Virus record (IMG/VR): IMGVR_UViG_3300028048_000045
Location: 128,001 to 192,000 of that record
DNA: 64,000 nt
Strand: one strand, 5' to 3'
From: a virus
Taxonomy: Duplodnaviria; Caudoviricetes
Shown one piece after another: positions 56,437 through 59,836 of the stretch. Each line of letters opens with the position of its first letter. Positions within the stretch are counted from its first letter, which is position 1. The position numbers were made by a program, and so were the translations under genes. A model generated the notes under the pieces. It worked only from the letters and a program-made list of their open reading frames with translations, was not told where the DNA came from and did no database searches.

Positions 56437-58041
56437 ATGGATTTTTTTAATTTTTTCCCTAGTTTGGAAAAATCAAATGAAGCATATTTTGGTTTAGATT
56501 CTCCATTATCTCAAGATCTTATTAATTATGCTAGTAAGTTAAAAGAACTAATACAAAATGTAGACGATACCAAATTCAAAAATAGAGAATTTATGAAAAA
56601 AGTAAATTCAATACTTATTGATTTTGGTGAAGCTGTTAAATTAGATGTTAACGCAGAAAGTGTAAAATTCTTATTAATTCCAGATGATACATTAAACGCT
56701 GCAGCTTATCCAATATTTATAAGAGCAAATACAACTGTAAAAGATAAAAATGGTAATATAAATATTGACTTGGATAAAATTATAGATATCGAAGATATCA
56801 TTGTTACATCTGAAGGTTATAAATACCGAAATAGTAAAAATAAACTTTTATGTGTAAAACTTAATAAAGGTTTAATTCAGAAATGTGAACCTGAAATCAT
56901 TGCTGGTGTAATAGCTCATGAATTAGGTCATTGTTTCCAAGATGGTATTTTTGGAGTTTATAAAGATGTTGCAGATATAACATTTTCACAAATGATGACA
57001 GCTAGTGCTCATGCTGTAGAAATGTTTAGAAACAGTATGCCTAAATTCATTCAAGGATTAACTAAGATTGTGGGTTTTAGATTTTTGTTTATAATTTTCA
57101 CTTATTTATGTTTTCCACAATATTTATTCACATCTGGTTTACTTTCCGGATTAGGTGCAAAATTAGCAAAGTTATCTAATAACTTAGCACATAAAAATAC
57201 AACACTACGAATGAAAGATCAGCTTGAGAAAATTGACGATGGTGATGATAAAACTAGATCTAGTTTACAAAATAGCCAAGCAACACAAATATTAACATAC
57301 ATCAATAAAGATAATGATCGTAATAAATTTATTAAAGATCTAGAAAAAAATAATAAAGATGAGTGGAAAATATATTTGGAGAATTGTAAAAACTTAGAAC
57401 CAGTTGGTGGTAAGTTTAAAGAATTCTGGGAAAGAATGGTTCGTAAATTTGACAATATGGATACTAGATTAGTTAGATTACTAACATTATCTAGATTCAC
57501 AAATAAAACTTATTTCAAAGTAACATTCTTCAAGCGATGGGAATTTTTCGCAGATATCTTCGCTACATCATACGGATTTGGACCAGAAACATACAGTTTC
57601 TTATCATCAATAGTTGATGATTATTTGGAAAAAAATAATGGTATGAGTATGTACGATAAATATCATATTTATAAGACATATTTGGAAACTTGTGAATATG
57701 ATGTGCATGGTACAAATAAACAAAGATTACAAAATATGTACACTGATCTTGTACACGAAATTCAAACTAATACACATTTAACTACTGATCAGAAAAAACA
57801 AATTCAATTGCAAATTGATCAATTAACTGCTATAAGTGAACAGGTTTATCAAAATCGTAAATCTAATAGTAAGTCTCTATTTACAAAAGCTTATAACAAA
57901 TTGATTGATGATCGTATTAATGGTATTAGTCATGATACTGAAGAAAAAATATTAAAACCTATTGATGATTTGTGTAAAGAAGTTTTTGTTGGAAAATACA
58001 AAAAAGAAATCCAAAACAGTATTGAGCATTTGATCGTATAA
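56437..58041 (+). CDS. Zincin (M48-like) metalloprotease, probably virion-packaged
   Basis: LNAAA, IAGVIAHELGH, third-ligand motif EFFAD.FA..YG, a downstream DVHG...RL segment, and an internal hydrophobic segment. Confidence 0.8.
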   Translation: MDFFNFFPSLEKSNEAYFGLDSPLSQDLINYASKLKELIQNVDDTKFKNREFMKKVNSILIDFGEAVKLDVNAESVKFLLIPDDTLNAAAYPIFIRANTTVKDKNGNINIDLDKIIDIEDIIVTSEGYKYRNSKNKLLCVKLNKGLIQKCEPEIIAGVIAHELGHCFQDGIFGVYKDVADITFSQMMTASAHAVEMFRNSMPKFIQGLTKIVGFRFLFIIFTYLCFPQYLFTSGLLSGLGAKLAKLSNNLAHKNTTLRMKDQLEKIDDGDDKTRSSLQNSQATQILTYINKDNDRNKFIKDLEKNNKDEWKIYLENCKNLEPVGGKFKEFWERMVRKFDNMDTRLVRLLTLSRFTNKTYFKVTFFKRWEFFADIFATSYGFGPETYSFLSSIVDDYLEKNNGMSMYDKYHIYKTYLETCEYDVHGTNKQRLQNMYTDLVHEIQTNTHLTTDQKKQIQLQIDQLTAISEQVYQNRKSNSKSLFTKAYNKLIDDRINGISHDTEEKILKPIDDLCKEVFVGKYKKEIQNSIEHLIV

Positions 58042-58059
58042 AAAAAATCAAAGCAGAAT

Positions 58060-58200
58060 TATAAGAAACGCATTCGGATTTTATGCATTTACCTAGTATT
58101 CGAGCACTTACGTGACCGGTTTACATGTCCTGTTGCCCCTTTCGGGGACTTGCGTCAAGACTCTCTCCTACTAGGCTGTAAACCTATGATTCTTCTTAGA
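58060..58200 (-). ncRNA. Unclassified structured ncRNA (pseudoknot, three GNRA tetraloops)
   Basis: GC-enriched, ORF-free island. Minus-strand helices: GGUUUACA/UGUAAACC, CCUAGUA/UACUAGG, GAC-GCAA-GUC, CCC-GAAA-GGG, CAC-GUAA-GUG. Own TTATATATTTT motif at 58218-58208. Confidence 0.7.
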
Positions 58201-58234
58201 CATAAATAAAATATATAAATGAAAAAATAATATA

Positions 58235-58272
58235 AATACACACTGGAGGACTTGTTCCTCCAGTGTATTATT
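58235..58272. terminator. Intrinsic terminator of the beta-N gene
   Basis: ACACTGGAGGA-cttgt-TCCTCCAGTGT. Confidence 0.8.
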
Positions 58273-58297
58273 TAATATACAACCCAAACCATTTTTT

Positions 58298-59836
58298 TTA
58301 TTTCTTAATAAGAACAGGATCGATTTCAAATGTCATCTTATCCATATCGAATGTTTGATTACACGGACAGATAAAATGACTCAAACCAGGAGCACCAGCA
58401 GACTGACCTTCAATAAAGTTAATCGCACCAATGTAGTCAATTGGGAATTGACGAAGTGTTGTAGAAACTCGTTTTGATTTAGCTGAAGGAGATCCAGGAC
58501 CAGTTTTAGTTACCATCAATAATGTATTTGTTAAAGCATCATCATTACATTCGCTACTGAATTTAGCAATAGTCAAACCAGTTACCTGATGTGAAATCTT
58601 ACCAATAATAGCATTAAGAATCAACGAAGATTTAATTTTAAATACATCCAACAGTCCATCCATAGTTTTAAGTTTGTCAGGAGTGTTCATAAAACGATAA
58701 ATCTTTTCTGTAAACATTACTGTAAATGGAGAAATCAAATATTCACCAAGACGTAAACGTTTATTCTGAAGACCATCGTCTTTAGATGTAAGAGATGCAT
58801 AATTACAGAAGATCCATCTCGCCACAGCATAGATATTTGATCTATCTGTACCAGGAACCAACTGACTTATAATCTCACGAGTGTGATAATCAAGAGAATT
58901 ATTAAATGTTTTAAGAAGAGCAATTCCTTTTTCCATTGACTTCTGAATAGAAATACTTTCTCCTAAAAGCATTGTCCATCGTGTAACATTTCGGATATAA
59001 TCCATATCCATTGAACGTTTTTGAGAAGCAAGGATTGTTGCTACAAATGTACGGAATACATTGTTTTCATCAAATGCTTGCTTGTCAACACCCATATAAA
59101 CCTGACCAAATTTGAATATGTATTGATTTGTTGGGAAAGCTGATAAATCTGGAGTTTTTTCATTTTCGCTTAATGAATATAACTTAATCCATTTATCTAC
59201 TCCGAAATATTCCAAAGTTCTATAGAAACCGAAATATGCGAAGAAATAAATAAGAACAGGAATACATTTACGGGTAACATAAATCATAATTTTAGAAGTG
59301 TTATACTTCTTTCCAAAAATATCAGTAATGATAGTTTTTTGACGTTCGAATTTTATAGCACGAGTCATTGTTTTTAATACTAATACATTTTTCTTAGTAA
59401 ATGTAATAGCATCAATAATCTGAAGTGGACAAGAATACTTGTTTCCTCTTATGTAGAAGTGAGAATTATCAATCAATAATGGAATCCACATTGAGAACGA
59501 TTGATGAAGTGTTGTACCTCCAAATGAACATTCAAAATCAAATATAGCTTCCTTAGCAAATGTATCATTAATATTGATTCTAATTTCATTTTTGTTAGCA
59601 GTCTTCAATGAACCTTCATCATCTTTATCACGTTCCAACATTTTACCACGAGAATCCTGATAATGATATCCTAAATATTTAACATATTCAGGAATCAATT
59701 GACAAACTGCTTTACAAGCATCATCAATATATTTAGTCATCTCGTCTTTTTTACGGATCTCCACAATTAATTTATCATTAAACATTCCATCATTCTTAGA
59801 TGAAAAACCAGAAACAAGTTCTAACGCTGAAGCCAT
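58298..59836 (-). CDS. Split RNA polymerase beta-like subunit, N-terminal part (probably non-virion RNAP)
   Basis: WIPLL...FYIRGNKYS..LQI (RpoB F.ING....SQ-like), NKRLRLGEYL, GPGS, and LRQFPIDYIGAI...AGAPGL (RDVH.THYGR.C...GPNIGL-like). Confidence 0.85.
   Translation of the reverse strand: MASALELVSGFSSKNDGMFNDKLIVEIRKKDEMTKYIDDACKAVCQLIPEYVKYLGYHYQDSRGKMLERDKDDEGSLKTANKNEIRININDTFAKEAIFDFECSFGGTTLHQSFSMWIPLLIDNSHFYIRGNKYSCPLQIIDAITFTKKNVLVLKTMTRAIKFERQKTIITDIFGKKYNTSKIMIYVTRKCIPVLIYFFAYFGFYRTLEYFGVDKWIKLYSLSENEKTPDLSAFPTNQYIFKFGQVYMGVDKQAFDENNVFRTFVATILASQKRSMDMDYIRNVTRWTMLLGESISIQKSMEKGIALLKTFNNSLDYHTREIISQLVPGTDRSNIYAVARWIFCNYASLTSKDDGLQNKRLRLGEYLISPFTVMFTEKIYRFMNTPDKLKTMDGLLDVFKIKSSLILNAIIGKISHQVTGLTIAKFSSECNDDALTNTLLMVTKTGPGSPSAKSKRVSTTLRQFPIDYIGAINFIEGQSAGAPGLSHFICPCNQTFDMDKMTFEIDPVLIKK

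Follow-up and report, generated by a model that had tools for sequence, protein, structure and literature searches.

RNAs C and D of phage T4 are small stable phage RNAs, the function of which is unknown. 6S RNA, Y RNA/YrlA and the RNA of the signal recognition particle (SRP) are encoded by stand-alone genes, possess paired ends and a conserved three-dimensional (3D) fold, and act in trans. ROOL, GOLLD and HEARO (omega RNA, before IscB was understood) represent orphan motifs of complex fold and 400–800 nucleotides (nt) in length, which are associated with phages and often located near genes of transfer RNAs (tRNAs). To our knowledge, very few structured RNAs with genes of their own are known from phages beyond tRNAs, and none from jumbo phages with a multisubunit RNA polymerase (RNAP). 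The subject of the present analysis is a putative RNA gene in a stretch of 64,000 nt (hereafter the window; positions 128,001 to 192,000) from the 276-kb, 99 % complete virus record IMGVR_UViG_3300028048_000045 of IMG/VR. At the protein level, Bacillus phages AR9 and PBS1 come closest among cultured phages (27 % identity), and the source is an uncultured jumbo phage from animal guts that resembles AR9. The RNA gene is located on the minus strand at ~58201-58040, is non-coding and lies within a 256-nt gap between the stops of two convergent genes, which encode the RNAP subunit beta-N and an M48-like metalloprotease, respectively. With a G+C content of 46 % in the RNA core versus 30 % in the whole window, the GC-enriched island free of open reading frames (ORFs) that had been noticed here from the letters of the window (in the following, the original prediction) was recovered.

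A conserved, strand-specific pseudoknotted fold of the predicted RNA was established by comparison of homologous sequences. Twelve distinct copies including that of the window (i.e., 11 further homologs), representing ~7 lineages, were obtained from related uncultured gut phages, with some of the source samples originating from pig gut. The homologs stem from contigs fetched via a protein search of metagenomes with both flanking genes and from a pattern scan of metagenomes; two further contigs (L062 and L063) end short of the RNA and are outside the count of 12. Sequences were aligned with MAFFT, and the pairs of the window-derived structure were counted per cell. Overall, 95.6 % of the pair cells are paired and 11 pairs display changes on both sides, with none of 500 column shuffles scoring as high, and sliding the partners by 1–3 columns reduced pairing to 28–42 %. 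A comparison of this kind, crossing helices included, had been suggested with the original prediction, and the compensatory changes counted here bear it out. The features of the RNA gene are as follows, in the direction of transcription:

58219-58208, minus strand: TTTATATATTTT, promoter-like sequence resembling the early (virion RNAP) promoters of AR9/phiKZ, with a G after another 6 nt; conserved in all 12 homologs
58218-58208, minus strand: exact 11-mer of the promoter motif, TTATATATTTT
58201, minus strand: predicted transcription start, G, 6 nt past the motif; invariant in 12 of 12
58197-58185, minus strand: P0 5' strand, leader AAGAAGAAUCAUA, partner 58063-58051; pairing possible in all homologs
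58184-58177 / 58125-58118, minus strand: P1, GGUUUACA / UGUAAACC; 84 % of cells paired
58175-58169 / 58098-58092, minus strand: P2a, pseudoknot helix, CCUAGUA / UACUAGG; 6 of 7 pairs changed on both sides, 98.8 % of cells paired
58168-58163, minus strand: GGA (5' side of the G-A loop), then GAG of P2b
58165-58163 / 58104-58102, minus strand: P2b, GAG / CUC; 36 of 36 cells paired, all Watson-Crick; AAG/CUU in L044
58161-58127, minus strand: P3 domain, P3 enclosing P3a, P3b and the junction GCAAC; most conserved part of the RNA
58161-58157 / 58131-58127, minus strand: P3, GUCUU / AGGAC; 100 % paired, only G-U-compatible changes
58156-58147, minus strand: P3a hairpin, GAC-GCAA-GUC; without covariation, RNAalifold favours another pairing
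58146-58137, minus strand: P3b hairpin, CCC-GAAA-GGG; invariant, GNAA loop in 12 of 12
58117-58115, minus strand: GGU, unpaired; invariant in 12 of 12
58114-58105, minus strand: P4 hairpin, CAC-GUAA-GUG, 3–4 base pairs (bp); 100 % paired, GNRA loop in 10 of 12
58104-58092, minus strand: CUC of P2b, GAA (3' side of the G-A loop), UACUAGG of P2a
58090-58066, minus strand: P5 hairpin, AAAUGCAU-AAAAUCCGA-AUGCGUUU; loop UCCRA in 10 of 12, 3 pairs changed on both sides, 95.6 % of cells paired
58063-58040, minus strand: P0 3' strand UAUAAUUCUGCUU, UGA and U8; probable 3' end, U-run adjoining the protease stop in all homologs

Both crossing helices of the original prediction, i.e., the 8-bp P1 and the 7-bp P2a, are present. 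The changes in P2a arise in at least four independent lineages, and pairing in P2a, P2b and P5 is maintained in four lineages by at least seven double substitutions of independent origin, the compensatory change in P2b being a G-C to A-U exchange in the most divergent homolog (L044). In P1, one pair changes from G-C to U-A in four sequences, the 5' strand retains an invariant UUUACA, and the likewise invariant first base G forms a G-C pair in 10 sequences and a G-U pair in 2. The GUCUU/AGGAC helix (P3) had also been predicted; together with P3b and P4 it never breaks, these three helices varying solely by G-U-compatible single changes. P4 shows an A-U to G-U change in two sequences and an added fourth pair in five homologs, while P5 contains a U-G in six sequences which pairs on the minus strand only. 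Insertions and deletions respect the helices, and RNAalifold alone recovers P2a, P2b, P3, P4 and P5. All three GNRA-capped hairpins described originally (P3a, P3b and P4) occur in the window; a universal GNRA character of their loops was not retained (AUAA in P3a of one homolog; AUAA in one and a GUAAA pentaloop in another homolog for P4), and P3a lacks covariation.

With the pseudoknot left aside, four arms (P0; P1-P3; P4; P5) meet in a junction, and P2 connects the strand linking P4 and P5 with the internal loop inside the P1-P3 arm. GGA opposite GAA between P2a and P2b likely forms a tandem sheared G-A loop. The linkers (7 nt, GGA-GAG-A, between P2a and P3; P4 abutting P2b; P3 1 nt from P1) imply coaxial stacks of P1 with P3 and of P2 with P4. 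The ends of the RNA are probably joined by P0, the helix of leader and 3' tail. For this terminal helix, the proposed form UAAGAA/UUCUUA was abandoned and replaced by the redrawn AAGAAGAAUCAUA/UAUAAUUCUGCUU, which has weak statistical support; it is clear in L044 (AUAACCG/CGGUUAU) and L040 (AAUUAUA/UAUAAUU) and of ambiguous register elsewhere.

Conserved intergenic DNA, such as a protein-binding site or terminator debris, with helices arising by chance would agree with half of the sequences being near-identical, with the lack of double changes in P3, P3a, P3b and P4, and with the unimpressive single-sequence fold (z-score of the minimum free energy just -1.85), so that the single sequence alone is insufficient to settle the structure. 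Against this stand the double substitutions in four lineages, the loss of pairing in the slid controls, the indels that respect helices and a strand asymmetry: across all pairs, 30 G-U cells versus 2 A-C cells were counted in the minus-strand reading. The fold is more than chance, because the 11 further homologs keep it via compensatory changes, and an origin as non-functional RNA is thus regarded as extremely improbable. The G-U/A-C ratio also indicates selection of the fold on the minus strand, i.e., the orientation of the original prediction, and led to the rejection of a plus-strand RNA or a structure in the 3' untranslated region (UTR) of the protease transcript. A micro-ORF of 16 codons inside the island, started by UUG behind a GGAGAG resembling a Shine-Dalgarno (SD) sequence, was likewise rejected, as start, frame or length is lost in five of six divergent homologs: the start is CUG in two homologs, a stop follows after 2 codons in L044, the frame is shifted by one-base indels in P1' in L041 and L046, and the C-terminus is also altered in L045. 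The RNA has no conserved coding potential.

Early promoters of phage AR9 have the consensus AAATATATATTAT-N6-G(+1) and are read by the virion RNAP (PMC5312081). An AT-rich motif of the conserved form TTTATATATT(T/G)T-N6-G is located upstream of the RNA in 12 of 12 homologs and agrees with the architecture of AR9/phiKZ-type early promoters, namely an AT-rich consensus plus a G after 6 nt. In the phage genome, 18 copies of the motif TATATATT(T/G)T were found, mostly 20–80 nt 5' of an SD sequence and a start codon. In its exact form, the promoter motif named in the original prediction is enriched, with 5 copies of the 11-mer in the window versus 0.99 expected; no enrichment was detected in the window when one mismatch was allowed. 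The transcription start is placed at G58201, on the basis of the AR9 rule and the invariance of this G six bases after the motif, which is among the few invariant positions upstream of P1. At the other end, the U-run that had been noted behind the RNA was mapped as U8 at 58047-58040, overlapping the TAA stop codon of the convergent protease gene. The only stem available ahead of it is the long-range P0, which in L044 is directly followed by the U-run. We infer from these signals a discrete product of ~160 nt with paired ends that would be transcribed early. The independently transcribed, structured RNA of the original prediction is accordingly favoured by the motif and the invariant G in 12 of 12 homologs and by the covarying pseudoknot helix. 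Promoter, +1 G, closing helix and U-run constitute a recurring design in these phages, which was also observed for tRNA-like RNAs in the same genome and in L044.

One of these tRNA-like RNAs is located outside the window in the phage's own genome, at G000:C1:248127-248226 on the plus strand (L064:144-226). An early-type promoter motif is followed by 6 nt and a G, the latter being the first base of an RNA with 46.5 bits to the Rfam tRNA model, in which a 19-nt insertion with a GGCCC-GAAA-GGGCC hairpin takes the place of the anticodon arm and the 3' strand of the acceptor leads straight into a U-run without CCA. This RNA cannot decode and may be a tRNA mimic or decoy. The second one, at L044:3065-3131 (minus strand; promoter at ~3195-3185), lies between the beta-N terminator and the pseudoknot RNA. 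It scores 51.7 bits with the Rfam tRNA model, has normal acceptor, D and T arms, a 3-bp anticodon stem and a 6-nt loop, is preceded by a CCCCGAAAGGGGG hairpin and was not called by ARAGORN. In addition, two copies of the promoter motif outside the window (G000:C1:226736 and 228441, both plus strand) are followed by structured leaders of 60–110 nt with hairpins ahead of SD sequence and start codon, which may represent leader RNAs or else additional small RNAs.

The compact pseudoknot with its invariant GGU and GCAAC, tandem G-A loop and GNRA loops would also suit a new class of catalytic or ligand-sensing RNA, e.g., an aptamer with P0 and the U-run serving as a conditional terminator. P0 as the sole stem before the U-run, the direct succession of both in L044, and the antisense direction in which read-through would enter the protease gene are in line with such a switch. 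Opposed to it are the lack of a sense gene downstream, the lack of similarity to riboswitch or ribozyme families, and the tRNA-like RNAs, which share closing helix and U-run and thereby suggest plain termination; moreover, no ligand or reaction can be named. A catalytic or sensing RNA is, therefore, considered unlikely, if worth keeping in sight. Slightly less probable still is its specific version, in which a new ribozyme or sensor would be encoded as a free-standing early gene, with a site built from GGU, GCAAC, the G-A loop and UCCRA and with possibly conditional termination.

The surroundings of the RNA gene comprise the following features:

58298-59836, minus strand: upstream gene of beta-N (512 amino acids, aa), matching the beta subunit chain of the AR9 non-virion RNAP (nvRNAP; PDB 7s00_c, E 1.5e-43)
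58238-58268, minus strand (scores on plus strand too): bidirectional intrinsic terminator with a 13-bp stem at the end of the nvRNAP beta-N operon, outside the RNA gene
56437-58041, plus strand: convergent gene of the 534-aa M48-like metalloprotease with HExxH (PF01435, 22.9 bits; stop TAA at 58039-58041)

The position of the RNA outside the beta-N terminator, as stated in the original prediction, was reproduced by this mapping. The protease gene is the sole neighbour constant at all 12 RNA loci and always convergent with the RNA. Between clades, the protease diverges far faster (37 % identity) than beta-N (69 %). The predicted protease model (predicted local distance difference test, pLDDT, 81) consists of the M48-like domain and a long all-helical C-terminal region. 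A comparison of this AlphaFold model with PDB folds yielded no significant match and weak rows to E. coli BepA only, and the protease as RNA-binding partner was rejected on these grounds.

Convergence with the protease gene in all 12 loci is one of several observations that would fit a cis-antisense regulator, i.e., an RNA pairing with the 3' UTR of the protease messenger RNA (mRNA) and altering its stability or termination. Since the beta-N terminator scores as such on both strands, the protease mRNA probably reads antisense through the whole small RNA gene, and the sole terminator-like site of the plus strand found by scan is indeed located beyond that gene; the RNA complementary to the small RNA gene would amount to ~200 nt. 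Moreover, the U-run overlaps the protease stop codon, and the RNA is confined to the clade with this protease type. An antisense RNA would, however, not need a pseudoknot, and a tightly folded RNA makes a poor antisense; selection has acted on the fold of the RNA itself, as shown by the compensatory changes and by 30 G-U pairs specific to its strand, and the constant adjacency may be plain synteny. Antisense control as the essence of the locus is accordingly rated improbable, and an antisense effect on the protease mRNA may come on top of another role.

In every copy, promoter motif, RNA and U-run follow in this order, convergent with the protease gene. The upstream context varies between beta-N itself, one or two additional small ORFs and, in L044, a further promoter with the tRNA-like gene. 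Nearly all homologs possess a terminator hairpin with U-run ahead of the promoter, the exception being L044, where the U-run ending the tRNA-like gene sits just before the RNA promoter. Since the arrangement of the RNA is kept despite the varying upstream genes, the module is self-contained. The extra small ORFs (117–138 aa, without Pfam family) between beta-N and terminator were found at L002:822-1187, L039:5404-5769, L040:5853-6215 and L042:5837-6596 and are missing from the window phage and L041. Their presence in near relatives and absence from these two marks the junction of beta-N and terminator as a hot spot of gene gain and loss.

In all close relatives that were retrieved, model R1 detects the RNA downstream of the protease gene, with protease identities of 55–92 % among the loci retrieved via this gene, and a metagenome scan for the conserved sequence of the P3 domain yielded three additional copies confirmed by R1. 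In most comparisons, the RNA core is 80–85 % identical versus 71–78 % for the adjacent protease DNA. The phage's own genome contains a single copy, no second one being found by models R1 and R2, and nucleotide searches for near and distant relatives of the locus among GenBank phages returned none. In the 94 % complete record G004, an ordinary gene and a terminator, and no RNA, lie behind the protease homolog (37 % identity). A weak hit in G002 was dismissed as a look-alike, sharing only the CCCCGAAAGGGG hairpin and AT-rich flanks, and seven matches of bacterial genomes to the core 20-mer are isolated hairpins by chance and not the RNA. The RNA gene is thus specific to a single clade of gut jumbo phages and does not occur in bacterial genomes.

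A search with the 4227 covariance models of Rfam 15 (including HDV, twister, hammerhead, pistol, hatchet, tRNA, tmRNA, RNase P, 6S and riboswitches) gave no hit in the window at gathering thresholds; at E ≤ 10, positions 57950-58350 produced weak hits on the upstream terminator only and none on the RNA, in accordance with the original prediction, which could not assign the RNA to any family. The core sequence had no match in the literature text or in the one supplement set searched. Judged by sequence and structure models, the RNA is a new family with a new fold and a narrow distribution.

The original prediction had perceived an echo of the topology of hepatitis delta virus (HDV) ribozymes. 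In the latter, the loop (L3) of a short P3 forms the two base pairs of P1.1 with the nucleotides immediately following P1' (PMC13635239), the single-stranded J4/2 begins with the catalytic cytosine, the exchange of which to U inactivates the ribozyme (PMC10879173, PMC13635239), and P1-P1.1-P4 and P2-P3 form coaxial stacks with P2 leading directly into P3 (PMC13635239). HDV-like (theta) ribozymes are present in gut phages (PMC10879173). A self-cleaving ribozyme of the HDV kind, its P3 domain enlarged and its cut 5' of G58184, could be conceived from the strand order shared with HDV, CPEB3, drz and theta ribozymes (P1, P2, hairpin domain, P1', GG, hairpin, C-rich/GAA strand, P2'), from conservation of the +1 G of P1, the GG past P1' and the C past P4, and from the similar size class and common occurrence in gut phages. 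The crossing P1 and P2 in the HDV order P1-P2-P3-P1'-P4-P2' are indeed present; any H-type pseudoknot with inserted hairpins is alike in this respect. In HDV-like ribozymes, P1 is closed by a G-U wobble at the cleavage site; the corresponding pair is G-C in 10 and G-U in 2 of the present sequences. The counterpart of J4/2, however, is base-paired (P2b; CUC with GAG in 36 of 36 cells, G-C to A-U in L044) and leaves no free catalytic C, with the C of 'CGAA' being U in L044 and its last A being U in 6 of 12 sequences. There is no L3 and no P1.1: the 5-bp P3 closes a 25-nt domain in which no CC is available, and the GG after P1' is invariant yet without partner inside this domain. P2 and P3 are separated by 7 nt, P3 being implied to stack on P1 and not on P2. 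Furthermore, the leader 5' of the supposed cut site is part of the conserved closing helix; own promoter, closing helix and U-run contrast with HDV-like ribozymes, which sit within longer transcripts; and none of the Rfam HDV families scores at E ≤ 10 on the locus. Because CUC pairs with GAG and the active-site features are missing, the likeness is only topological and kinship with HDV was given up; an HDV-type ribozyme, rejected on the P2b pairing and the missing L3/P1.1, is regarded as very unlikely.

We consider it an even call that the locus is, as a whole, a free-standing gene for a ~160-nt non-coding RNA of a new family, which would act early and in trans by binding protein. Transcription would start at G58201 from the AT-rich promoter type that virion RNAPs of jumbo phages use for early genes and stop at the U-run 58047-58040. 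As the comparison of homologs shows, the RNA folds into a compact, closed shape, with P0 probably joining the ends, the P1-P3 arm carrying the near-invariant GC-rich domain, P4 and P5 forming further arms, and the long pseudoknot helix (P2a, tandem G-A loop, P2b) locking the whole. It may then act in trans early in infection via its 3D shape, binding a phage or host protein as cofactor or decoy, with the invariant single strands GGU and GCAAC and the P5 loop as putative sites of contact or tertiary docking. A cis-regulatory element of a downstream gene was ruled out, because no gene follows the RNA downstream; the trans protein-binding reading is adopted because discrete end-paired RNAs (6S, Y, SRP, tRNA-like) act that way. 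By this analogy, action on a protein through shape is possible and is put forward tentatively. Several points weigh against the explanation as a whole. Start, end and transcription itself are all deduced from sequence signals. P1 is imperfect in the divergent homologs (U-U mismatches, one-base slips), and P1 and P2 may coexist or alternate. Duplex energies of P0 versus shuffles are mostly non-significant, the weak z-scores being due to the A-rich and U-rich character of leader and tail. No partner protein was found, the model of the neighbouring protease being without RNA-binding fold, and the family is narrow, as R1 and R2 revealed no RNA in 30 related IMG/VR records, of which eight, including G004, are at least 90 % complete. 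Finally, an intricate fold with invariant junctions would be equally typical of ribozymes and ligand sensors, protein binding representing the default reading.

The common plan of this RNA and the odd tRNA-like RNAs suggests a small set of shaped RNAs deployed at the very start of infection, with host takeover, counter-defence and control of the phage's own polymerases as possible uses. The newness applies to the RNA family and its fold. Since the RNA is short, its helices can be mutated and the invariant single strands are defined, its biochemistry (binding, sensing, catalysis) is directly accessible to testing. Like RNAs C and D of T4 and the tRNA-like RNAs encoded by these phages, the RNA belongs to the discrete, promoter-driven, end-paired RNAs of 80–160 nt from large virulent phages; it differs in not being matched by the Rfam tRNA model and in its pseudoknot and GC-rich branched domain, which have no counterpart there. 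6S RNA, Y RNA/YrlA and SRP RNA provide the model for the preferred mechanism and share the stand-alone gene and paired ends; they have no Rfam match to the present RNA, and its four-arm junction with pseudoknot contrasts with a rod or an Alu/S domain. While the present RNA, with ~160 nt, its restriction to one jumbo phage clade and no similarity in sequence or model, is set apart from ROOL, GOLLD and HEARO, it shares with them the discovery by comparative analysis, an intricate conserved structure and the association with phages.

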